A stretch of DNA of 32,000 bases, taken from contig NC_014972.1 of NCBI RefSeq assembly GCF_000186885.1, positions 1,920,001 through 1,952,000 of the forward strand. Reading direction: 5' to 3'. Below, one piece after another: positions 4,486-13,953 of the stretch (positions are counted from its first letter, which is position 1; each line of letters begins with the position of its first letter). Made by a program: the position numbers and the translations under genes. The notes under the pieces were generated by a model. It had not been told where the DNA came from and did no database searches. It was given only the letters and a program-made list of their open reading frames with translations. Source of the stretch: Desulfobulbus propionicus DSM 2032. GTDB taxonomy: Bacteria; Desulfobacterota; Desulfobulbia; Desulfobulbales; Desulfobulbaceae.

Positions 4486-4490
4486 CTAGA
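4486..4490. repeat. Left copy of the 5-bp target-site duplication CTAGA
   Basis: CTAGA directly abuts IR-L. The identical CTAGA directly abuts IR-R at 13744-13748. A 5-bp duplication is the Tn3-family hallmark. Confidence 0.9.
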
Positions 4491-4528
4491 GGGGTATGAA
4501 GTCCAACGGAACGAAAACGTACGCTAAG
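4491..4528. repeat. IR-L, 38-bp terminal inverted repeat
   Basis: GGGGTATGAAGTCCAACGGAACGAAAACGTACGCTAAG. It shares the GGGG...GGAACGAAAAC...ACG.TAAG frame of the Tn3 IR and is 36/38 identical to the reverse complement of IR-R. Confidence 0.93.
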
Positions 4529-4596
4529 AATTCAATGGAGATGTTTCGATATCTAAAATCAGCAATTGAATCGAGAAACTGACTCTATCCTGCTAG

Positions 4597-4914
4597 TTAT
4601 AGGTCTCCTGTCATGCCAAATTCAATTGCCGTTTTAACAAAAAAAACGTTCACGTCTTCCTCCTTGATCCGTGCAAACAACCGTTCGGCATCCGCCTCGC
4701 TTACCGCCATGGTTACTTGCAGGGGTTGATCCGTCAGCTCAAAAAAATGCACAGAGCGTAATTTTCGATCATGGCCGTACCCCTCGGCAGCCTGGGTCAA
4801 CGTTGCGCCGCCAATTCCTATTGATCTAGCCTCCTCCACTAACCATTTCGCTACCGGTCGGCCTTTATGATTTCGATCCTGTTGCGTAAAAAATGTCAGT
4901 TGATATCCAAGCAT
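4597..4914 (-). CDS. DUF190 domain protein (CrcB-associated, PII-like fold)
   Basis: 105-aa ORF resembling DUF190 proteins (HKGRPVAKWLVEEARSIGIGGATL..AEGYG). Lies directly downstream of crcB, which is the usual pairing. GAGG Shine-Dalgarno 5 nt before the ATG. Confidence 0.8.
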   Translation of the reverse strand: MLGYQLTFFTQQDRNHKGRPVAKWLVEEARSIGIGGATLTQAAEGYGHDRKLRSVHFFELTDQPLQVTMAVSEADAERLFARIKEEDVNVFFVKTAIEFGMTGDL

Positions 4915-4929
4915 ATTTGCCTCGTTCTT

Positions 4930-5310
4930 TCAGCTTCTGAAGGCTGCAATCGTTGCCATACCCAAAATGGTCATGGAGAGCGACCCTATGACATGTATTG
5001 AAATCGCGATTCCGGCCCAAAGGAAACGCCCTTGTTGCAACAAGGTGGTTACTTCGGCGGAAAAGGTGGAAAACGTGGTCAGTCCACCAAGAAAACCGGT
5101 AATAACCATCAAGCGCCATTCCGGAGACAACTGGGGCACTGCCGCAAAGACCGCCAAGGCCACCCCGATCAAATAGCCGCCAAGTAAATTGGCGGCTAGG
5201 GTACCTGGCGGAACAAAGGGAAAAATAGTGTTCAGAGTGCGACCAAGCAGCCACCGCAACACCGCTCCAACTGAGGCGCCTACACTGATTGCAAGTATTG
5301 AGTTGAGCAT
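4930..5310 (-). CDS. crcB: Fluoride ion channel CrcB/Fluc
   Basis: 126-aa, 4-TM protein aligning along its whole length with E. coli CrcB: [34 protein letters not shown]. Confidence 0.9.
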
Positions 5311-5319
5311 AATATTTTT

Positions 5320-6318
5320 TTACGAACAGGCTCCAGCGATAGCAACCGCAACCGCAACAGATGCGCCCACCATGGGATTGTTGCCCATGCCAAGGAAGCC
5401 CATCATTTCAACATGAGCTGGAACTGAGGATGACCCGGCAAATTGCGCATCGGAATGCATTCTGCCCATAGTATCGGTCATTCCGTAGGAAGCCGGTCCG
5501 GCGGCCATGTTGTCGGGGTGCAGGGTGCGGCCGGTGCCGCCGCCAGAAGCCACGGAGAAATACTTCTTGCCCTGTTCAAGACATTCTTTCTTGTACGTCC
5601 CGGCCACTGGATGCTGAAAGCGGGTCGGATTGGTCGAATTACCGGTGATGGACACATCCACCCCTTCAAAGTGGTTGATGGCAACCCCTTCACGAACATC
5701 ATCAGCGCCAAAGCAGCGCACCTTGCCTCGCTCGCCTGTGGAATAGGCAAGCTCGCGGACAACGCTCAGGGTGTCAGCGGCGTAATCGAACTGGGTCTGC
5801 ACATAGGTGAAGCCGTTGATCCGGGAGATGATCTGGGCCGCATCCTTACCCAAACCATTGAGGATCACCCGCAGCGGTTCAGTGCGAGCCTTGTTGGCCG
5901 AACGGGCCAAACCGATCGCGCCCTCGGCGGCGGCAAAAGATTCATGACCAGCGAGGAAGGCAAAACATTTGGTTTCTTCGGAAAGGAGCATGGAGGCCAG
6001 ATTGCCATGGCCGATGCCCACCTTGCGATCCTCGGCCACCGAGCCGGGGATACAGAAGGCCTGCAAACCCTCGCCCAGGGTGCGGGCTATATCCACCGCC
6101 TTGCTTTCCCCTTTTTTGAGGGCAATGGCCGCGCCTAGGGTGTAAGCCCAACAGGCGTTGTCGAAACAGATTGGCTGGATGTTTTTGACGATGGCTGGAA
6201 CATCGACCCCTATGGCCACGCTCATGGCTTTGGCCTCCTCCAGCGAGGCAATACCCCATTGAGCTAGCACCGTGTTGATCTTCTCAATTCTGCGTTCATA
6301 TCCTTCAAAAAAAACCAT
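5320..6318 (-). CDS. GGGtGRT family protein (Pfam PF14057-like, function unknown)
   Basis: 332-aa ORF with the eponymous motif SVASGGGTGRTLHPDN and about the family-typical length of 330 aa. AAGGAGG Shine-Dalgarno overlaps the stop of the upstream gene. Confidence 0.85.
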   Translation of the reverse strand: MVFFEGYERRIEKINTVLAQWGIASLEEAKAMSVAIGVDVPAIVKNIQPICFDNACWAYTLGAAIALKKGESKAVDIARTLGEGLQAFCIPGSVAEDRKVGIGHGNLASMLLSEETKCFAFLAGHESFAAAEGAIGLARSANKARTEPLRVILNGLGKDAAQIISRINGFTYVQTQFDYAADTLSVVRELAYSTGERGKVRCFGADDVREGVAINHFEGVDVSITGNSTNPTRFQHPVAGTYKKECLEQGKKYFSVASGGGTGRTLHPDNMAAGPASYGMTDTMGRMHSDAQFAGSSSVPAHVEMMGFLGMGNNPMVGASVAVAVAIAGACS

Positions 6319-6329
6319 GATCCGCCTCC

Positions 6330-7019
6330 TTATTCGTGCCGGGGATTGATGGTTCGTACCGCCTCGGAGAAGCGGCCGTAGCTGCCGGTGGCCCTGGTGA
6401 GGGCTTCGTCGGCGCCGGTACCCCGATGAATCATCTCCATCATCTTGCCGAGATGGACAAACTCATAGCCGATCACTTCGTCGTTGGCATCGAGGCCGAG
6501 CCGGGTCACATATCCTTCAGCCATATCGAGGTAGCGCACCCCCTTGGCCTTGGTGCCATACATAGTGCCCACCTGGCTGCGCAGCCCCTTGCCCAGGTCC
6601 TCCAGACCGGCGCCGATGGGCAGGCCACCCTCGGAAAAGGCTGTCTGCGAGCGGCCATAGACGATCTGGAGAAAGAGTTCACGCATGGCGGTGTTGATAG
6701 CATCGCAGACCAGATCGGTGTTGAGAGCTTCGAGGATGGTCTTGCCCGGCAGGATCTCGGCCGCCATGGCCGCCGAGTGAGTCATGCCCGAACAGCCGAT
6801 CACCTCGACCAGGGCCTCCTCGATAATGCCCTCCTTGACGTTGAGGGTGAGTTTGCAGGCGCCCTGCTGGGGGGCACACCAGCCGACCCCGTGGGTCAGA
6901 CCGGCGATATCTTTAATCTCTTTGGCCTGGGTCCATCGGCCTTCCTGGGGGATGGCCGCGGGACCGTGATTGGGTCCTTTGGCCACGCAGGTCATCTGTG
7001 CCACTTCTGAAGAGTACAT
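6330..7019 (-). CDS. Divergent NifU/IscU N-terminal-domain-like protein with a C-terminal extension
   Basis: 229-aa ORF. GACKLTLNVKEGIIEEALVEVIGCSGMTHSAAMAAEILPGKTILEAL follows the IscU pattern (CGD..L.l.v, GC..a.ASSS..tE...GKT..EA). AAGGAGA Shine-Dalgarno 5 nt upstream. Confidence 0.6.
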   Translation of the reverse strand: MYSSEVAQMTCVAKGPNHGPAAIPQEGRWTQAKEIKDIAGLTHGVGWCAPQQGACKLTLNVKEGIIEEALVEVIGCSGMTHSAAMAAEILPGKTILEALNTDLVCDAINTAMRELFLQIVYGRSQTAFSEGGLPIGAGLEDLGKGLRSQVGTMYGTKAKGVRYLDMAEGYVTRLGLDANDEVIGYEFVHLGKMMEMIHRGTGADEALTRATGSYGRFSEAVRTINPRHE

Positions 7020-7064
7020 GCCTGTCTCCTTTTGTTGTGAATGAGCAGGTTGTTGCCACCTGCT

Positions 7065-8336
7065 TCATGATTGTTGTGCACCGCCTGCCTGTCGTAAAAC
7101 AAGGGTGCCGGCCAGCATCAGCACAGCTGCCAGGCCAAAGCTGAACACCGGCGATATTGCCGTCCACAGGACGCCGACCACGGTGCTGGAGATAAATTTG
7201 GCAGTGCCGTTGACTGTGCCCAATGCACCCACTGCGGTAGCGAGCAGTTCCTGGCTGACCATTTCGGCGGTCACCGTCGATTCCAGAGCTTCCTGCACCG
7301 CCATATACAAACCAGCAACCAGGAAAATCACTCCCAAGAAGACGATACTGTCGATGCGAAGGGCAAAAGCGGCAGCAGTCAAGATGGCAGTGAGCACACC
7401 TAGCACATATCCGGCGATCAGGGTCGGCATGTGGCCAAAACGGTCGGCAAGGACACCGATGGGAAAGGAGACGACTACCTGGACCACATTGCGCCAAACG
7501 TAGAGAAGACCAGCAACCTGCGCCGCATGAACCACACCCATAGTTTCGGTCAACAGTTGGGTAGCCGCCAGGATCAGCAGGCTATGGGAAAAATCGCCGA
7601 TACCAAAAATACCAACCGCCGCTAAATAGCGCTTGAACCGCAGCGGCAACCCGCGCAGGGTATGAAAAAACCGCAACGCCGGGTTGGGAGAGTGTTCAGG
7701 ATCTCGCACCAGGGTGAAAAATGCGACTACAGCCAGAACACCAGGGATAACCGAGAGCCACAACACAACACGGAAGGCAAACGATCCGTCATGCCCATTC
7801 CATCCTTGAACCCATCCCAGTAGAGCAACGCCCAGCAGGGGACCGAGCACAGCGCCAATGGTATCGGTGGCCCGATGAAAACCAAAAGCCCGACCACGGG
7901 TTTCCGGCTGCACCGCCTGCATGACAATGGCATCGCGGAGTGGGCCACGCAATCCCTTGCCAAACCAGGAGATGATCCTGCCCCAGAGGATAAGGGGCCA
8001 ACCGGCGGCCAAGGCGATCAGAAACTGGCCAATCGGGGTCAGGCCGTAGCCAATCACAACTAGCAACTTGCGGTGCCCGAGTTTGTCGGCAATGAAGCCG
8101 GAGATCATCTTGGTGAAGCTGGCCACGGCATCGGCAATGCCCTCGATCGTCCCCAGAACAGCCGGTGGCAGGCCAAGGACCGCCAGGAACCCCGGCAGGA
8201 TGACCGTGGTGGTTTCATAGCAGAAATCACCCAATGCACTGGTGATGCCAGCACCTATTACGGTGCGATTAAGCCAGCCCTGCGGCTGACCTTGAGATTC
8301 GGTTGGTGCATCCTGGGTATCGATAGATTTTTGCAT
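7065..8336 (-). CDS. MFS transporter (about 12 TM)
   Basis: Highly hydrophobic ORF with an MFS loop 2-3-like motif (GFIADKLGHRKLL). The track ORF starts at a TTG (8348); the ATG at 8336 (MQKSID...) is preferred. Confidence 0.85.
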   Translation of the reverse strand: MQKSIDTQDAPTESQGQPQGWLNRTVIGAGITSALGDFCYETTTVILPGFLAVLGLPPAVLGTIEGIADAVASFTKMISGFIADKLGHRKLLVVIGYGLTPIGQFLIALAAGWPLILWGRIISWFGKGLRGPLRDAIVMQAVQPETRGRAFGFHRATDTIGAVLGPLLGVALLGWVQGWNGHDGSFAFRVVLWLSVIPGVLAVVAFFTLVRDPEHSPNPALRFFHTLRGLPLRFKRYLAAVGIFGIGDFSHSLLILAATQLLTETMGVVHAAQVAGLLYVWRNVVQVVVSFPIGVLADRFGHMPTLIAGYVLGVLTAILTAAAFALRIDSIVFLGVIFLVAGLYMAVQEALESTVTAEMVSQELLATAVGALGTVNGTAKFISSTVVGVLWTAISPVFSFGLAAVLMLAGTLVLRQAGGAQQS

Positions 8337-8356
8337 GGTTTTCCCCAAACATTGCC

Positions 8357-8899
8357 TTAACGATTTTCATCCTGCACTTCGAATACCCGCTGCGCATAGG
8401 CATCCAGCAGGGATTCACAGTCTGCCAACCGTTTCTGGGCCTCTTCGGCGAGATTGGTTCCGTAGAAGTCGAGCTTGCGGATTTTTTCCAGCCAGGAGTG
8501 GAGTTTTTTCAGGTCGACGTCGTTTTCTTCCAACTCAGCGTAGGTAAAGTGGCTGGCGGCGGTTTCCTTGGCGATTTCTGCTTCGAAATCTTTACATTTA
8601 TCAAGGAACTCTTTGTATTCTTCGTCACGGTCTGCCTTGAATCGTGCTACCACTTTGTTTTCCTGAGCCTTGTCTAGGGCCACAGCTTCCAGAATCACTG
8701 CGTCGCCACCCATTTCAATGATCTCATTCTCCAGTATCTTCAATCGTCGGGTGTAGTCATCGGTTTTTGGGAGTAAACAAACACCGTTCTGCAGATAAAC
8801 AGCTCCCATCCCTTTCAGCTTTCGCCAAAGGGAAATACGCTTCTTTGCCGGCTCCGGTGGTACTTTATACGTCAGCAACAACCAATTTTGTGTCTCCAT
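8357..8899 (-). CDS. ChrB N-terminal-domain-like protein (putative regulator/sensor), followed by a coiled coil
   Basis: WLLLTYKVPPEPAKKRISLWRKLKGMGAVYLQNGVCLLP matches the ChrB N-terminal signature (WL.L...lP...s..R...WR.Lk..Ga..L.dGvylLP). The track ORF (to 9001) starts at a TTG; the ATG at 8899 (METQNW) is preferred. The start is uncertain. Confidence 0.7.
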   Translation of the reverse strand: METQNWLLLTYKVPPEPAKKRISLWRKLKGMGAVYLQNGVCLLPKTDDYTRRLKILENEIIEMGGDAVILEAVALDKAQENKVVARFKADRDEEYKEFLDKCKDFEAEIAKETAASHFTYAELEENDVDLKKLHSWLEKIRKLDFYGTNLAEEAQKRLADCESLLDAYAQRVFEVQDENR

Positions 8900-9041
8900 G
8901 CGTCTCAGATTCTTTTTTCGCTTTGCGAGCCTTTTATGGAACAGTACCCGATCAATCGCATCCACACTGTTGGACAGAAACACATCGATCCTAACCGTCA
9001 AGATAGGGTTATCAGTTTCAGGGATTTCTTATCACGTGCTT

Positions 9042-9070
9042 ATTACAATGTAACGGTCGTTACAATTCAA
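9042..9070 (-). promoter_or_regulatory. Candidate sigma70 promoter with an operator palindrome in the spacer (cargo operon)
   Basis: On the minus strand: TTGAAT (9070-9065), a 17-bp spacer, then TGTAAT (9047-9042). The spacer contains the perfect palindrome TGTAACG-AC-CGTTACA (9064-9049) and direct ATTGTAA repeats. Confidence 0.45.
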
Positions 9071-9102
9071 CAGAAATAATAAGGGTTGAGGCTGCGAGAT
9101 AG

Positions 9103-10667
<1,565 letters not shown>

Positions 10668-10707
10668 TTAAAATTGCTCGAAGTTCAGTTTTGATGGGGA
10701 GGGAATC

Positions 10708-13700
10708 ATGCCCGTCGATTTTTTAACCTCGGAACAGAAAGCCTGCTACGGCCAATTTTCTGGGGAACCTAACGAAGTGCAGCTGGCCCGATATTTTCAC
10801 CTGGATGAAGCTGACCTTGCTTTTATCAATAACCGGCGTGGTGATCAAAACCGTTTTGGTGTCGCCTTACAGGTGGGCTGTGTTCGATTTCTAGGAACCT
10901 TCCTCTTCGACCTGTCACGGGTACCTGTCAACGCGCAATGGTTCATTGCCCGACAGCTTGATATCACTGATGTTGGGATACTGTCTAAATATGCTCAAAG
11001 GGAGACCACGCGAAGAGAGCATACTGCTCTCATCCGCAATCAGTATCAATACCGAGAATTCACATGGCCCTGGTCGTTCCGGCTGAACCGCTTACTCTAT
11101 ACACGCAGTTGGATCAGTAACGAGAGACCAAGCCTACTGTTTGACCTGGCCACTGGATGGTTGACTCAAAATAAGATCCTTCTGCCCGGTGCTTCCACAT
11201 TGACACGTTTGATTTCAGAGGTGCGCGAACGAGCTACCAATCGTTTATGGCAACGATTATCGGCGTTGCCTGCCCCAACGCAAATTGCCAAGCTAGAGAC
11301 GTTGTTTCAGATCCCGGAAGGGTCAAGAACTTCTCGTTTTGATCGCTTCCGCAAGGGGCCGGTGACAATCAGTGGTCCCGCCTTCAATGAGGCAGTTGAC
11401 CGTTATCAGGAGCTGAAGACCTTCGGCATGCATGAGCTCGATTTCACAGGTATCCCGCCGGTACGCTTTAAGAACATAGCCCGTCACGCTGGTATGATCT
11501 CTATGCACAAAATCGCTCGCATGCCGGAGAGTAAGCGTACTGCTATTCTGGTTGCCTTCGCCAGAGCGTATGTGACCATCGCCTTCGATGAAGCCCTGGA
11601 CGTGCTGGATTTACTGATTACCGAGATCGCCGGTGAGGCTAAAAAGCTGGGCCAGAAGAAACGGCTACGTACATTGAAGGATTTAGATAAATCTGCGCTG
11701 GCGCTGGCAGAGGTTTGTGCTCTGATACTCAACGAAAGCATGCAGGATGAACTGCTGAGGCCGACTATCTTTGCCAAAATGCCACCTGAAAGACTGGCGG
11801 AATCCATTGCCACTGTCCATGACCTGGCTCGGCCCTACGACGATAACTTCCAAGATGAAATGGTGGAGCAGTATGGCCGGGTCAGGCGTTTCTTGCCGAG
11901 ATTATTGCATGTTATCAAATTTAAAGCAGCTCCTGCGGGGAAATCAACTCTTGAAGCCCATCAGTATTTGGCCGGGTTATTGGAATCACGCAAACAGTTA
12001 TTGGATGAGGCCCCACTGGACATTGTTTCTAATTCCTGGAAACGCATGGTGTTTGATAAAGAAGGGAGAGTAACCAAACGAGGTTATACGCTGTGTTTTC
12101 TTGATAAGTTGCAAGACAGCCTGCGCCGCCGGGACGTCTATGTCGAAAATAGTGATCGTTGGGGTGATCCACGTGCCAAACTACTACAGGGCCAGGAATG
12201 GCAAGCTAACCGAATTCAGGTGTGTCGGTCACTTGGTCATCCTCTGAATCCCCAAGAGGCCATTGATGCTCTGGTGCGCCAACTGGATGATACGTATAAA
12301 CAGGTAGCCAGCAGATTTGATGACAATGCGGTTGAGCTCGACCTGTCCGGCAAACGGCCAACGTTGACGATTACACACTTTGATAAATTGGATGACCCCG
12401 CCAGCCTAACTATCCTCTCACAACAAATTGAGGCCTTGGTTCCCAACGTGGATCTTACAGAGCTGCTACTGGAAATCCATACTCACACCGGCTTCGCTGA
12501 CGAATTTACTCATGTCAGTGAAGCCAATGCTCGCGTCGATGACCTGACTGTCAGCATCTGCGCAGTACTATTGGCGGAGGCTTGCAACATAGGGTTGGAA
12601 CCACTGATCAAGCACCATGTGCCCGCATTGACTCGACACCGTCTGAACTGGGTCAAACAGAATTACCTGCGTGCCGAAACATTGGTAAAGGCAAACGCCA
12701 AACTGGTGGACTATCAATCTACTTTATATCTAGCCAGGAAATGGGGTGGTGGCGAGGTCGCTTCCGCCGACGGAATGCGGTTTGTCACACCGGTCCGCAC
12801 TATTAATGCCGGGCCAAATCGAAAATACTTCGGCTCTAGCCGGGGCATTACCTGGTACAACTTTATCTCTGATCAATTCTCAGGGTTTCATGGTATTGTT
12901 ATCCCTGGAACATTGCGCGATTCCATCTTTGTGCTTGAGGGATTGCTGGAGCAGCAGACCGGTCTGAACCCGGTGGAAATTATGACCGATACCGCCGGTG
13001 CAAGCGATATGGTATTCGGTTTGTTCTGGTTACTTGGTTATCAATTCTCACCGCGCCTTGCTGACGCTGGCGAATCCGTATTCTGGCGCGTGGACAAGAA
13101 TGCCGACTATGGCGTATTAGATGACCTAGCACGTAGTTGCGTCAATACACACAAGATCGAGCAGCATTGGGACGACATGATGCGTATTGCCGGTTCACTC
13201 AAACTTGGTACCGTGCAGGCATCCGAGTTGATCCGATCTCTACTGAAAAGTGATCGTCCTTCCAGCCTGGCGCAAGCCATTATTGAAGCGGGTCGGATCA
13301 ACAAAACTTTGTATCTGCTAAATTACGTGGATGATGAGGACTACCGTCGCCGGATTCTGACGCAGTTGAATCGCGGCGAAGGCCGTCATGCCGTCGCACG
13401 GGCTATTTGTCACGGTCAGCGGGGCGAAATTCGCAAACGGTACCGGGAAGGTCAGGAAGATCAACTTGGCACGCTTGGCTTGGTGACCAACGCTCTGGTG
13501 TTGTGGAATACAATTTATATGCAGGCCGCCCTTGATCATCTAAAAGAACAGGGGAAGGATGTGAAAGAAGAGGATGAAGCCAGATTATCCCCTCTCAGCC
13601 ATAAACATGTGAATATGCTCGGCCATTACTCGTTTACCTTGGCGGAACAAGTACTGAAGGGCCAACTCAGGCCGTTAAAGCAGCCATCTGAACTGGACGG

Positions 13701-13710
13701 ATGGTCTTAG
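10708..13710 (+). CDS. tnpA: Tn3-family DDE transposase TnpA
   Basis: 1000-aa ORF. N-terminus MPVDFLTSEQKACYGQF...RGDQNRFGVALQVGCVRFLG is typical of the Tn3 TnpA DUF4158 region, and a Tn3-type DDE region follows. GGGGAGGG Shine-Dalgarno. The TAG stop (13708-13710) lies inside IR-R, as in Tn3. Confidence 0.95.
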   Translation: MPVDFLTSEQKACYGQFSGEPNEVQLARYFHLDEADLAFINNRRGDQNRFGVALQVGCVRFLGTFLFDLSRVPVNAQWFIARQLDITDVGILSKYAQRETTRREHTALIRNQYQYREFTWPWSFRLNRLLYTRSWISNERPSLLFDLATGWLTQNKILLPGASTLTRLISEVRERATNRLWQRLSALPAPTQIAKLETLFQIPEGSRTSRFDRFRKGPVTISGPAFNEAVDRYQELKTFGMHELDFTGIPPVRFKNIARHAGMISMHKIARMPESKRTAILVAFARAYVTIAFDEALDVLDLLITEIAGEAKKLGQKKRLRTLKDLDKSALALAEVCALILNESMQDELLRPTIFAKMPPERLAESIATVHDLARPYDDNFQDEMVEQYGRVRRFLPRLLHVIKFKAAPAGKSTLEAHQYLAGLLESRKQLLDEAPLDIVSNSWKRMVFDKEGRVTKRGYTLCFLDKLQDSLRRRDVYVENSDRWGDPRAKLLQGQEWQANRIQVCRSLGHPLNPQEAIDALVRQLDDTYKQVASRFDDNAVELDLSGKRPTLTITHFDKLDDPASLTILSQQIEALVPNVDLTELLLEIHTHTGFADEFTHVSEANARVDDLTVSICAVLLAEACNIGLEPLIKHHVPALTRHRLNWVKQNYLRAETLVKANAKLVDYQSTLYLARKWGGGEVASADGMRFVTPVRTINAGPNRKYFGSSRGITWYNFISDQFSGFHGIVIPGTLRDSIFVLEGLLEQQTGLNPVEIMTDTAGASDMVFGLFWLLGYQFSPRLADAGESVFWRVDKNADYGVLDDLARSCVNTHKIEQHWDDMMRIAGSLKLGTVQASELIRSLLKSDRPSSLAQAIIEAGRINKTLYLLNYVDDEDYRRRILTQLNRGEGRHAVARAICHGQRGEIRKRYREGQEDQLGTLGLVTNALVLWNTIYMQAALDHLKEQGKDVKEEDEARLSPLSHKHVNMLGHYSFTLAEQVLKGQLRPLKQPSELDGWS

Positions 13711-13743
13711 CGTACGTTTTCGTTCCATTGGACTTCAAACCCC
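13706..13743. repeat. IR-R, 38-bp terminal inverted repeat
   Basis: The reverse complement, GGGGTTTGAAGTCCAATGGAACGAAAACGTACGCTAAG, differs from IR-L at 2 of 38 positions. Confidence 0.93.
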
Positions 13744-13748
13744 CTAGA
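13744..13748. repeat. Right copy of the 5-bp target-site duplication CTAGA
   Basis: CTAGA immediately outside IR-R, identical to 4486-4490. Confidence 0.9.
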
Positions 13749-13752
13749 CGCC

Positions 13753-13953
13753 TCAGGAGCCACCGTAGCCCACGGTCACCTTGCCGTCGATGACAAGCAC
13801 CGGCACCCTGCGCTGCCCCAGGCTGTGTTGCAGCATTTCCTCCATGCGGCGAGGTTCCGCCTTGACGTCATGATAGATATGATCGGGATGCGCCGCCCGG
13901 GCGCTGGTGGTGTAGGGTCAACCATGTTTTCCATAGATGATGCTCTGGCTCAT
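13753..13953 (-). CDS. Glutaredoxin-like small redox protein with in-frame UGA (putative selenocysteine, U-P-Y-T motif)
   Basis: Hand translation of the minus strand: MSQSIIYGKHG-[TGA 13920-13918]-PYTTSARAAHPDHIYHDVKAEPRRMEEMLQHSLGQRRVPVLVIDGKVTVGYGGS*. The TGA sits exactly where Grx/NrdH proteins have the first Cys of CPYC. The C-terminal GQRRVPVLVIDGKVTVGY is the Grx pattern. GGAGGA Shine-Dalgarno 5 nt before the ATG. Not in the ORF track because of the TGA. Confidence 0.7.
13890..13904 (-). other. Candidate bacterial SECIS hairpin
   Basis: On the mRNA, 13 nt after the UGA: GCGCC-CGGGC-GGCGC, a 5-bp GC stem with a G-containing apical loop. The loop starts 19 nt after the UGA, within the commonly cited spacing range. 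The stem is short, so the call is tentative. Confidence 0.4.

Follow-up and report, generated by a model that had tools for sequence, protein, structure and literature searches.

Why should a transposon carry a fluoride channel gene in a tight string with a ChrB-type protein, a transporter and a pair of genes whose role is poorly understood? The element in question is an intact Tn3-family transposon of 9,253 bp in Desulfobulbus propionicus DSM 2032, at positions 4491–13743 of the window (the whole 32-kb stretch of DNA that was analyzed). Besides tnpA and tnpR it carries seven cargo genes, all on the minus strand, in the order prenyltransferase-like, ChrB_N, MFS, NifU-like, GGGtGRT, CrcB, DUF190. 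The cargo is probably a mobile, mosaic fluoride-tolerance operon under the control of a ChrB_N-type repressor, and comparison with other genomes provides a first tie of its poorly understood genes to fluoride defense.

That the gene set is carried by an intact transposon, as the original prediction had it, is clear from the ends of the element. The 39-nt terminal inverted repeats (4491–4529, plus strand, starting GGGGTATGAAGTCC; 13705–13743, minus strand) are 95% complementary and are bordered by identical 5-bp target-site duplications, CTAGA, read directly at 4486–4490 on the left and 13744–13748 on the right. The transposase gene, tnpA (10708–13710, plus strand; 1000 aa, DUF4158 and DDE_Tnp_Tn3), has about 80% DNA identity with Tn3-family modules of Shewanella and Aeromonas plasmids; tnpR (9951–10544, minus strand; 197 aa, Resolvase and HTH_7) encodes a serine resolvase. 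By its position, the region between them (10545–10707) presumably holds the res site and divergent promoters, and it includes two promoter-like sites at 10612–10645. A second, identical copy of the transposon, with a different flank, was found in an unrelated sequencing run. Judged from the repeats, the duplication and this copy at another site, the element is recently active or mobile.

The cargo had been described as six genes, and all six open reading frames are present on the minus strand where they were placed, but a seventh was missed. This gene (9103–9954, minus strand; PF00432, 50 bits) encodes a prenyltransferase-like alpha/alpha-toroid protein of 283 aa, its ATG overlaps the tnpR stop codon (ATGA), and a homologue (52–73%) lies upstream of ChrB_N in four other loci (L085, L090, L091 and L092). 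All the predicted families hold in Pfam HMM searches, NifU_N with a score of only 19.6 bits, under the 22-bit cut-off. The operon opens with a short, ChrB_N-only protein of 180 aa (8357–8899; PF20229, 152 bits), the presumed repressor, followed by an MFS transporter of 423 aa (7065–8336; MFS_1, 107 bits), which matches no NCBIfam subfamily at its cut-off. The MFS reading frame extends to a TTG at 8348, and the ATG at 8336 follows GGGGA at a distance of 5 nt. An MFS protein is the constant partner of ChrB_N, with 72–88% identity between the cargo MFS and the one that follows ChrB_N elsewhere, Tn6452 included. Next comes the NifU/IscU-like partner of GGGtGRT (6330–7019; 229 aa), which is as divergent as predicted, with a sub-threshold Pfam score, a C-terminal extension and weak PDB matches to IscU/NifU over residues 49–108; its conserved residues are C48, C55, C76, C105, H43 and H81, and it adjoins GGGtGRT in 74–75 of 81 loci. 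The GGGtGRT protein itself (5320–6318; 332 aa; PF14057, 635 bits; a 100% match to Despr_1681) is 78–94% identical across phyla, with invariant C89, C118, C202 and C246 and seven invariant His residues. Its function was rightly called undescribed, and a PDB search gives neither a sequence nor a fold match, so that it is also without solved relatives there. The last two genes encode a CrcB/Fluc fluoride channel (4930–5310; 126 aa; PF02537, 97 bits) and a PII-like DUF190 protein (4597–4914; COG1993, 105 aa; PF02641, 53.4 bits). An established role had been claimed for both; for CrcB it is supported by NCBIfam equivalogs NF010792 (180 bits, cut-off 125) and TIGR00494 (99.6 vs 80.45), but for DUF190 it is by association only. 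The CrcB translation also shows a 10-residue motif. The closest relatives of the DUF190 protein (50% identity) are short DUF190 genes adjoining crcB in L108 and L110.

Do these genes form a single transcription unit? Their tight packing stands, with intergenic gaps of 20, 45, 11, 9 and 15 nt when the likely start codons are used (ATG at 8899 for ChrB_N and 8336 for MFS). The claim that Shine-Dalgarno sites sit at the preceding stop codons is true of GGGtGRT, where AGGAGG overlaps the NifU-like stop, and there are good sites before MFS, NifU-like and DUF190 (GAGG, 5 nt before the ATG), but the picture is mixed overall, crcB having no site at a normal distance. Terminator-like matches in the region do not exceed chance level and all lie within open reading frames. 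A 7-bp hairpin, AGCAGGT...ACCTGCT, in the 45-nt spacer between MFS and NifU-like (7043–7065) was rejected as a minus-strand terminator, as the coding strand has no U-tail. Purely from the spacing and the absence of terminators, we infer co-transcription from 9042–9070.

At these positions (minus strand) there is indeed, as proposed, a candidate sigma-70-type promoter with an embedded operator. Between the –35 (TTGAAT, 9070–9065) and the –10 (TGTAAT, 9047–9042), the 17-nt spacer holds a perfect 16-bp palindrome, TGTAACGACCGTTACA (9064–9049), of the form TGTAAC-N4-GTTACA. The exact sequence is unique within the window, where 0.23 occurrences would be expected by chance at two mismatches or fewer. 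At the same tolerance, the palindrome is found upstream of 61 of 73 non-redundant ChrB_N genes, compared to 3 of 1112 background segments; it is kept down to 38% ChrB_N protein identity and always fills the –35/–10 spacer. In L087, where ChrB_N has been lost, it stands ahead of a deltaMFS–NifU-like–GGGtGRT–CrcB–DUF190 cluster. The leader from the predicted transcription start to the ChrB_N ATG (8900–9035, about 135 nt, minus strand; a correction to the original prediction) is no more structured than shuffled sequences (z = 0.67). In most other ChrB_N loci the operator is at –29/–30, which implies a leaderless ChrB_N mRNA there. Neither the leader nor any other part of the transposon contains a fluoride riboswitch; together with the general conservation of the palindrome upstream of ChrB_N genes, this fits the suggestion of protein/operator control in place of the usual riboswitch.

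Could the ChrB_N protein be the regulator? It lacks the ChrB C-terminal domain in Pfam, is also matched by PaaX_M, and has no described function and no solved relatives that we could find. The AF2 model (pLDDT 84.7) has a Cas2-like ferredoxin fold and three long helices, and its best PDB match is PaaX (8a39). The protein is 78–92% identical across distant taxa, with invariant C41, C102, C161 and H117 and two invariant arginines, R21 and R26, having the same 5-residue spacing as R18/R23 of ChrB. An inverted repeat that overlaps the –10 in the tnpR–chrB spacer is the binding site of full-length ChrB, whose N-terminal R18A/R23A mutants are constitutive; the N-terminal half of O. tritici ChrB alone gave no regulation (PMC3817168). 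Since the cargo protein has no recognizable helix-turn-helix, the case for its binding to DNA is made by analogy and from the conserved palindrome, and its role as a DNA-binding repressor is presumed.

What ties this module to fluoride? A survey with our own riboswitch model (E < 0.01), which under-counts as judged by Rfam, gave 41 matches in 29 of 80 ChrB_N-anchored metagenome loci (603 kb), against 5 matches in 3 of the 78 GGGtGRT-anchored loci used as control (931 kb). Of the 43 ChrB_N loci that reach 5 kb or more, 22 carry a fluoride riboswitch. The genes behind the matches form the classic fluoride regulon (Na/H exchanger, enolase, Usp, MutS, CLC, PAP2, HAD), and crcB/DUF190 adjoin ChrB_N in at least 12 loci. 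On the other hand, ChrB_N–MFS units were never found behind a riboswitch in these loci, and 18 of the 43 longer ones have no fluoride marker, so fluoride is perhaps not the inducer.

For NifU-like/GGGtGRT, a near-universal anaerobe pair, the link is seen in the closest relatives. At least five gene orders place these next to crcB/DUF190 or a fluoride riboswitch: CrcB–DUF190–NifU-like–GGGtGRT (L002); riboswitch–PAP2–HAD–PAP2–CrcB–DUF190–sulfatase–NifU-like–GGGtGRT (L003); NifU-like–GGGtGRT–riboswitch (L085, L082 and L091); NifU-like–GGGtGRT–CrcB–DUF190CBS (L087 and L173); and the latter order with an inserted 156-aa gene (L088). Co-occurrence with fluoride genes was thus borne out for both parts of the cargo. 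Of 78 genome loci that are more distant, 76 have no fluoride gene near the pair, nor was one found near it in L172 and L174 (87–88% identity), and the linkage could in part be inherited synteny within Desulfobacterota. The upstream four cargo genes are 88–95% identical to L085/L091, while the window CrcB is about 40% identical to CrcB of those loci and 62% to that of L108/L110; the operon is therefore a mosaic. Its source would have been a Desulfobulbaceae-type chromosomal locus (prenyltransferase-like, ChrB_N, MFS, NifU-like, GGGtGRT, fluoride riboswitch, Usp, CrcB, DUF190-CBS), in which a foreign crcB–DUF190 pair, joined 9 nt after GGGtGRT, may have replaced the riboswitch–Usp–CrcB–DUF190-CBS segment. 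By this replacement, we propose, fluoride export came under protein/operator control.

The short ChrB_N protein would thus act as a dimeric autorepressor that blocks RNA polymerase at the palindrome until a signal linked to fluoride stress (fluoride, a metal–fluoride complex, or a downstream upset of phosphoryl-transfer or metal metabolism) releases it and a single transcript is made. CrcB would then export fluoride, probably assisted or gated by DUF190, with the MFS protein and the Cys/His-rich NifU-like/GGGtGRT pair as auxiliaries. The pair is most likely a fluoride-sensitive metal-cluster enzyme, supplied as an extra copy; riboswitch-controlled enolase and pyrophosphatase are thought to be extra copies of fluoride-sensitive enzymes. 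Both the identity of the inducer and what MFS and the pair do are inferred.

How much of the cargo is really about fluoride? It is possible, though rather unlikely, that only crcB (with DUF190) is selected, that NifU-like/GGGtGRT is a housekeeping pair dragged along from beside a Desulfobulbaceae fluoride locus, and that ChrB_N–MFS is an unrelated mobile efflux module with a promoter that drives the other genes by accident. The pair is highly conserved, widespread, iron-regulated and in most genomes without fluoride context, the operon is demonstrably mosaic, and ChrB_N–MFS accompanies unrelated cargo elsewhere, for example mcr-5. However, linkage by inertia alone is unlikely given that the gene orders in which the pair adjoins crcB/DUF190 have different outer flanks. 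Moreover, L003 has the riboswitch upstream of the pair within one co-directional gene string, ChrB_N loci are more than 10-fold richer in riboswitches than the control set, and the L087 operator directly precedes NifU-like–GGGtGRT–CrcB–DUF190.

Distinctly less probable is a role for ChrB_N in sensing a cation, phosphate limitation or envelope stress and controlling transporters and phosphoesterases (MFS, EEP, PHO4, CDF, EptA/MCR-5), the proximity to fluoride genes reflecting shared chemistry and not sensing, since fluoride poisons phosphoryl transfer and complexes metals. Against this, the window, and apparently also L114, has ChrB_N at the head of a crcB-containing operon without a riboswitch, and half of the longer ChrB_N loci bear fluoride riboswitches. 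Yet the genes heading other ChrB_N operons do fit a broader phosphate/metal/envelope theme: those directly after ChrB_N include Exo_endo_phos (11), PHO4 (3), CDF (2), OFeT (2), EptA-like and Metallophos genes, mcr-5 occupies Tn6452, and in Rhizobium tumorigenes ChrB_N is flanked by an alkaline-phosphatase-family gene and a cation transporter; a metal site would be consistent with the invariant Cys and His residues. Resistance to chromate or another oxyanion, with MFS replacing ChrA as the exporter, is highly improbable as the function. The ChrB_N domain and the TnOtChr-like position of its gene, behind tnpR in a Tn3-family transposon, do suggest it, but the neighbors are fluoride genes, and the reading is unsupported because the C-terminal domain with the chromate-response residues R180, R187 and H229 is wholly absent, identity to canonical 325-aa ChrB is only about 26%, and chrA is missing from the transposon and all of the roughly 90 related loci. 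The predicted pairing of a ChrB-type protein with MFS instead of ChrA stands, and of the predicted selectable function, fluoride or another (oxy)anion, the fluoride part is favored.

As a fluoride-tolerance operon, the cargo has the logic of fluoride riboswitch loci (RF01734), namely an exporter with extra copies of vulnerable or helper proteins, and shares with them a bona fide CrcB and a DUF190 neighbor; relatives of its genes occur in or beside riboswitch strings (L003, L085, L082, L090 and L101). It differs in having no riboswitch and apparently being controlled through a protein operator. The crcB RNA motif controls crcB, eriC-F, enolase, Na+/H+ antiporter and Usp genes (Baker et al. 2012, as cited in PMC7266159), and the available parts of the literature on riboswitch-associated genes name neither ChrB_N, the cargo MFS nor NifU-like/GGGtGRT. 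With ChrB of TnOtChr from Ochrobactrum tritici (PMC3817168), the cargo protein shares a homologous N-terminal domain with the Arg pair in its helix, a gene position immediately behind tnpR of a Tn3-family element, and an inverted repeat overlapping the core of its own promoter. It is 180 aa long, not about 310–325 aa, without the rhodanese-like C-terminal sensing domain or a ChrA partner, and its operator sequence is different. PaaX, the phenylacetyl-CoA-responsive repressor, has the Cas2-like middle and C-terminal helical domains in common with it (183 aligned columns, 15% identity, TM 0.49), whereas the N-terminal winged helix of PaaX is missing. Another close parallel is Tn6452, the Tn3-family mcr-5 transposon (tnpA–tnpR–chrB–mcr-5–MFS) of pSE13-SA01718 and Cupriavidus gilardii. 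Its cargo likewise opens after tnpR with a short ChrB_N (82% aa identity), preceded by an operator of the same type, and ends with MFS (73%); what separates or follows these two genes is mcr-5 there and NifU-like/GGGtGRT/CrcB/DUF190 here. At the DNA level only chrB and MFS align, the transposition modules having no relationship, so that ChrB_N–MFS was captured independently. The Tn6452 chrB has been treated in the literature as a chromate regulator. Through the "chrB" and MFS genes of that transposon the ChrB_N–MFS pairing had entered the record before, though without discussion.

The cargo is best explained as a mosaic operon for fluoride tolerance, mobile and governed by a repressor/operator of the ChrB_N type, in which the MFS protein and the NifU-like/GGGtGRT pair probably act as recurrent auxiliary components. 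The interpretation in the original prediction, a mobile anion-stress operon with protein/operator control, is supported. Its six minus-strand ORFs were all found where it had placed them, and Pfam searches confirmed the families of ChrB_N (PF20229; 152.5 bits, covering positions 1-157 of a 159-position profile), MFS_1 (107), GGGtGRT (634.9), CRCB (97.1) and DUF190 (53). The NifU-like protein is a divergent relative that scores 19.6 bits against a PF01592 cut-off of 22 (and 22.8 against 187.9 for TIGR03419), so that only the label "NifU-like" stands; its orthologues in the comparison loci L002 and L003 reach 23.0 and 22.0 bits, at the PF01592 threshold. The sequence of CrcB identifies it as a predicted CrcB/Fluc fluoride channel above curated thresholds (PF02537, 97.1 against 32.9; NF010792, 180 against 125; TIGR00494, 99.6 against 80.45), and its translation contains the TTFST-type conserved pore motif known from Fluc structures.

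The likely starts of ChrB_N (ATG 8899) and MFS (ATG 8336) leave gaps of 20, 45, 11, 9 and 15 nt in the operon. Good ribosome-binding sites precede the MFS, NifU-like and DUF190 genes, and the AGGAGG ahead of GGGtGRT shares bases with the stop codon of the NifU-like gene; crcB lacks such a site at normal spacing. Terminator-like matches across the operon are no commoner than in shuffled sequences, and they lie inside ORFs. (The sole long spacer, the 45 nt between MFS and NifU-like, holds a 7-bp hairpin at 7043-7065 with no U-run on the coding strand, which may serve in RNA processing or stability, or be a scar where two modules joined.) The six genes are not the whole cargo, since a seventh had been left out: a prenyltransferase-like alpha/alpha-toroid gene (9103-9954, minus strand). 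Its ATG and the stop codon of tnpR share bases (ATGA), and this overlap couples its translation to that of tnpR. Its product has no NCBIfam match. Homologues (52-73%) lie upstream of ChrB_N in loci L085, L090, L091 and L092, and a fragment lies upstream of the NifU-like gene in D. alkaliphilus (L082).

Tn3-family transposons typically have terminal inverted repeats of ~38 bp starting with GGGG, a 5-bp target-site duplication, a Tn3-type DDE transposase and a resolvase. The element has 39-nt inverted arms at 4491-4529 and 13705-13743 that are 95% complementary, a CTAGA duplication bordering both ends, a 1000-aa transposase (DUF4158 plus DDE_Tnp_Tn3) and a serine resolvase, tnpR (Resolvase plus HTH_7), with a 163-nt tnpR-tnpA spacer that holds two promoter-like sites. 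A second, identical copy of the 9.25-kb element is present with another flank in an unrelated sequencing run. Taken together, the repeats, the duplication, the enzymes and the second copy make this a Tn3-family transposon that is intact, as had been proposed, and recently mobile. Its G+C content is ~50%, against ~60% in the surroundings. In a search of plasmid DNA, the tnpR-tnpA module showed ~80% identity to elements on Shewanella and Aeromonas plasmids; relatives were found for the transposition module only, and none for the cargo. The 38-bp right end alone (repeat 13705-13743) matches, at 97%, solitary sites in ~190 plasmids of Klebsiella, Enterobacter and Citrobacter. Five nucleotides past the right target duplication is a glutaredoxin-like ORF of 66 codons (13753-13953, minus strand), and the insertion point lies directly downstream of its stop codon. 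The ORF has an in-frame TGA at the first active-site Cys of CPYC (G-TGA-P-Y-T) and matches PF00462 with 34 bits once Cys is substituted, making it a candidate selenocysteine-containing glutaredoxin.

How is the operon controlled? The predicted promoter and operator at 9042-9070 held up: between TTGAAT and TGTAAT, a perfect palindrome, TGTAACGACCGTTACA (9049-9064), fills the 17-nt spacer and has no other exact match in the 32 kb. The absence of the usual fluoride riboswitch is likewise borne out, since Rfam gives no RF01734 match in the window at the gathering threshold, and our own covariance model, run with filters off, peaks at 6.6 bits, with no riboswitch. (RF01734 is present in the related loci L003, L082, L085, L101, L108 and L110.) The operator was sought in a 300-nt stretch ahead of each ChrB_N gene in 80 ChrB_N-anchored metagenome loci, allowing up to two mismatches: TGTAAC-N4-GTTACA precedes 61 of 73 non-redundant ChrB_N genes, compared with 3 of 1112 background segments. 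The palindrome is kept down to 38% protein identity, always between a TTGAnn -35 and a -10. In most loci (L092-L158, for example L112, L114 and L120) it begins 29-30 nt before the ATG and the -10 ends 6 nt before it, so that transcription would start at the start codon, implying a predicted leaderless ChrB_N mRNA. The Desulfobulbus clade, including the window, has a 135-240-nt leader inserted instead; that of the window (8890-9036) folds no better than shuffled sequences. In L087, the operator is kept ahead of a deltaMFS-NifU-like-GGGtGRT-CrcB-DUF190 cluster even though ChrB_N is gone.

The presumed regulator stops at residue 180, so that the C-terminal domain is missing. AF2 models it (pLDDT 84.7) as a Cas2-like ferredoxin fold with three long helices; among PDB entries, the repressor PaaX, minus its winged helix, matches best. 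Proteins of 180 aa with 78-92% identity occur in Desulfobulbus, an archaeal MAG, Ferrovum, Chloroflexota, Cupriavidus, Thauera, Methylomicrobium and E. coli plasmids, and such identity across distant taxa indicates that ChrB_N probably spread horizontally.

The link to fluoride comes from the company that ChrB_N keeps. With a covariance model built from three Rfam-confirmed fluoride riboswitches (match threshold E < 0.01), 41 matches were found in 29 of the 80 ChrB_N-anchored metagenome loci (603 kb; 22 of the 43 that measure 5 kb or more), against five in 3 of 78 GGGtGRT-anchored control genome loci (931 kb), which bears out the expected co-occurrence as far as ChrB_N is concerned. These figures are conservative, since Rfam finds riboswitches that the less sensitive three-sequence model scores weakly (L101, L108 and L110, at E 0.1-0.9, reach 46-58 bits in Rfam). 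L101 had been considered a riboswitch-free locus, which is ruled out by Rfam's recovery of its riboswitch. Behind the matches lie the genes well known from fluoride regulons: Na+/H+ exchangers, enolase, Usp, MutS-like, CLC, PAP2, HAD and PP2C. The ChrB_N gene itself is never behind a riboswitch among the ChrB_N-anchored loci. What usually follows it is a gene for an MFS protein like that of the window (72-88% identity), and in at least 12 loci crcB/DUF190 lie beside it, often in divergent orientation and with the riboswitch toward crcB. Dense "fluoride islands" (L134, L121, L147, L117, L101 and L110) have three or four riboswitches within 16 kb, often as divergent pairs. The only strong matches in the control set are divergent pairs in two Myxococcales MAGs, L005 (11393-11608) and L007 (1215-1462), 2.4-6.8 kb from NifU-like/GGGtGRT, with GGGtGRT relatives at 86% identity; even the control signal thus belongs to GGGtGRT relatives. 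A literature search found no paper linking ChrB or DUF190 with fluoride riboswitches.

GGGtGRT (PF14057) had been described as having no known function, and the literature agrees: proteomic and iron-stimulon mentions were found, and no functional study. The window protein, identical to Despr_1681 of Desulfobulbus propionicus DSM 2032, matches 325 of 327 profile positions and has the GGGTGRT motif at residues 259-265, which does not vary across 88 sequences. In the NifU-like protein, Cys 48, 55, 76 and 105 and His 43/81 are conserved, and only residues 49-108 align to IscU structures (E ~0.003-0.1). The invariant Cys/His sets of both proteins are consistent with a metal cluster; structure and fold searches returned no match giving a function for either. 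Together they are a near-universal pair of anaerobes, with 78-94% identity across phyla and genes that lie side by side in ~75 of 81 loci. In Bacteroides and Clostridium the pair is strongly regulated by iron, and it is abundant in metaproteomes of gut and rumen. For most of these loci the surroundings show no link to fluoride, the exception being the closest relatives of the window copy (87-93% identity). With NifUl-GGG for the pair, the orders are CrcB-DUF190-NifUl-GGG (L002); riboswitch-PAP2-HAD-PAP2-CrcB-DUF190-sulfatase-NifUl-GGG, with ChrB_N-EEP-MFS ahead of it (L003); prenyl-like-ChrB_N-MFS-NifUl-GGG-riboswitch-Usp-CrcB-DUF190CBS (L085); NifUl-GGG-riboswitch-Na/H exchanger-Usp (L082); NifUl-GGG-CrcB-DUF190CBS (L087); MFS-HEAT-NifUl-GGG-156 aa-CrcB-DUF190CBS (L088); and MFS-NifUl-GGG-CrcB-DUF190CBS (L173). 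(A first tblastn with the window CrcB and DUF190 missed the divergent homologues in L002 and L003, for which Pfam and small HMMs were needed.) The ~156-aa gene recurs beside MFS or between GGGtGRT and CrcB (L088, 9021-9491; L091, 5063-5533; L092, 9615-10085).

The window ChrB_N, MFS, NifU-like and GGGtGRT proteins are 88-95% identical to their counterparts in L085 and L091, but CrcB is only ~40% identical to theirs and is closest to the crcB-DUF190 pairs of L108 and L110 (CrcB 62%, DUF190 50%). The transposon thus resembles a locus of the L085 type whose riboswitch-Usp-CrcB-DUF190-CBS segment was swapped out; a foreign crcB-DUF190 pair would have been joined 9 nt after GGGtGRT, leaving no riboswitch.

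Bacterial fluoride defense is understood as riboswitch plus exporter. Here the exporter has become mobile and stands under an apparent protein/operator switch, and the comparative data tie three orphan families to fluoride biology: short ChrB_N, its MFS partner and the GGGtGRT/NifU-like pair. It is conceivable, if doubtful, that short ChrB_N proteins are widespread, horizontally mobile sensors of fluoride or metal-fluoride stress acting through TGTAAC-N4-GTTACA, the first such transcription factors, and that NifU-like/GGGtGRT is a fluoride-vulnerable metal-cluster enzyme, backed up under fluoride stress. If so, a pair among the most conserved and abundant uncharacterized ones of anaerobes would gain a role in fluoride stress. 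The operator consensus of this possible protein-based fluoride switch is an immediate target for EMSA and reporter assays.

Could the cargo mean something else? It may be a hitch-hiking mosaic in which crcB alone matters. The co-occurrence of GGGtGRT/NifU-like with crcB holds for the closest relatives, in several gene orders and with outer flanks that differ throughout, but not for most other loci, nor for L172 and L174, equally close relatives with no fluoride gene; we consider this reading rather unlikely. A phosphate, metal or envelope module, tied to fluoride only indirectly, would suit the EEP, PHO4, CDF and EptA genes that are found after ChrB_N as well; such a module is quite improbable.

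Chromate resistance is the least credible reading, to the point of being rejected. The original prediction was right about the ChrB_N domain and about an MFS transporter in place of ChrA. Canonical ChrB is ~325 aa long, with a C-terminal rhodanese-like sensing domain and ChrA as its partner, whereas the window protein is 180 aa, lacks that domain and is only ~26% identical; ChrA is found neither in the transposon nor among the genes downstream of ChrB_N at 55 loci. On these two defining features, the missing domain and the missing ChrA, the protein falls outside the ChrB chromate regulators. In TnOtChr, the chromate-sensing residues of ChrB (R180, R187 and H229) are in the C-terminal domain, and the full-length protein binds an inverted repeat overlapping its own -10, repression requiring the N-terminal R18/R23 (PMC3817168). 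The window protein has an invariant Arg pair, R21/R26, at the same spacing. The likeness is in the mode of action, autoregulated operator binding, which the palindrome in the promoter spacer suggests for the window as well, and ChrB_N presumably acts as a repressor.

Among described elements, Tn6452, the transposon that carries mcr-5 in the order tnpA-tnpR-chrB-mcr-5-MFS, comes closest. It shares the short ChrB_N (82% aa, 77% DNA) and the MFS gene (73% aa, 72% DNA), both behind tnpR and oriented as in the window. In Salmonella Tn6452 (plasmid pSE13-SA01718), a 1-nt deletion ~53 nt upstream of chrB (ATGAAACGGCC to ATAAACGGCC) damages the left half-site of the operator and leaves 16 instead of 17 nt between -35 and -10, which could change mcr-5 expression; the operator is intact in the Cupriavidus gilardii copy and in the metagenome copies L098 and L102. 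The chrB of Tn6452 is treated in the literature as a chromate regulator, and since the same regulator, dismissed there as a chromate gene, stands ahead of mcr-5, the switch proposed here could also explain the control of that colistin-resistance gene. At the DNA level, only the chrB and MFS genes align with the window transposon, so that two different Tn3-family backbones appear to have taken up the ChrB_N-MFS module independently.
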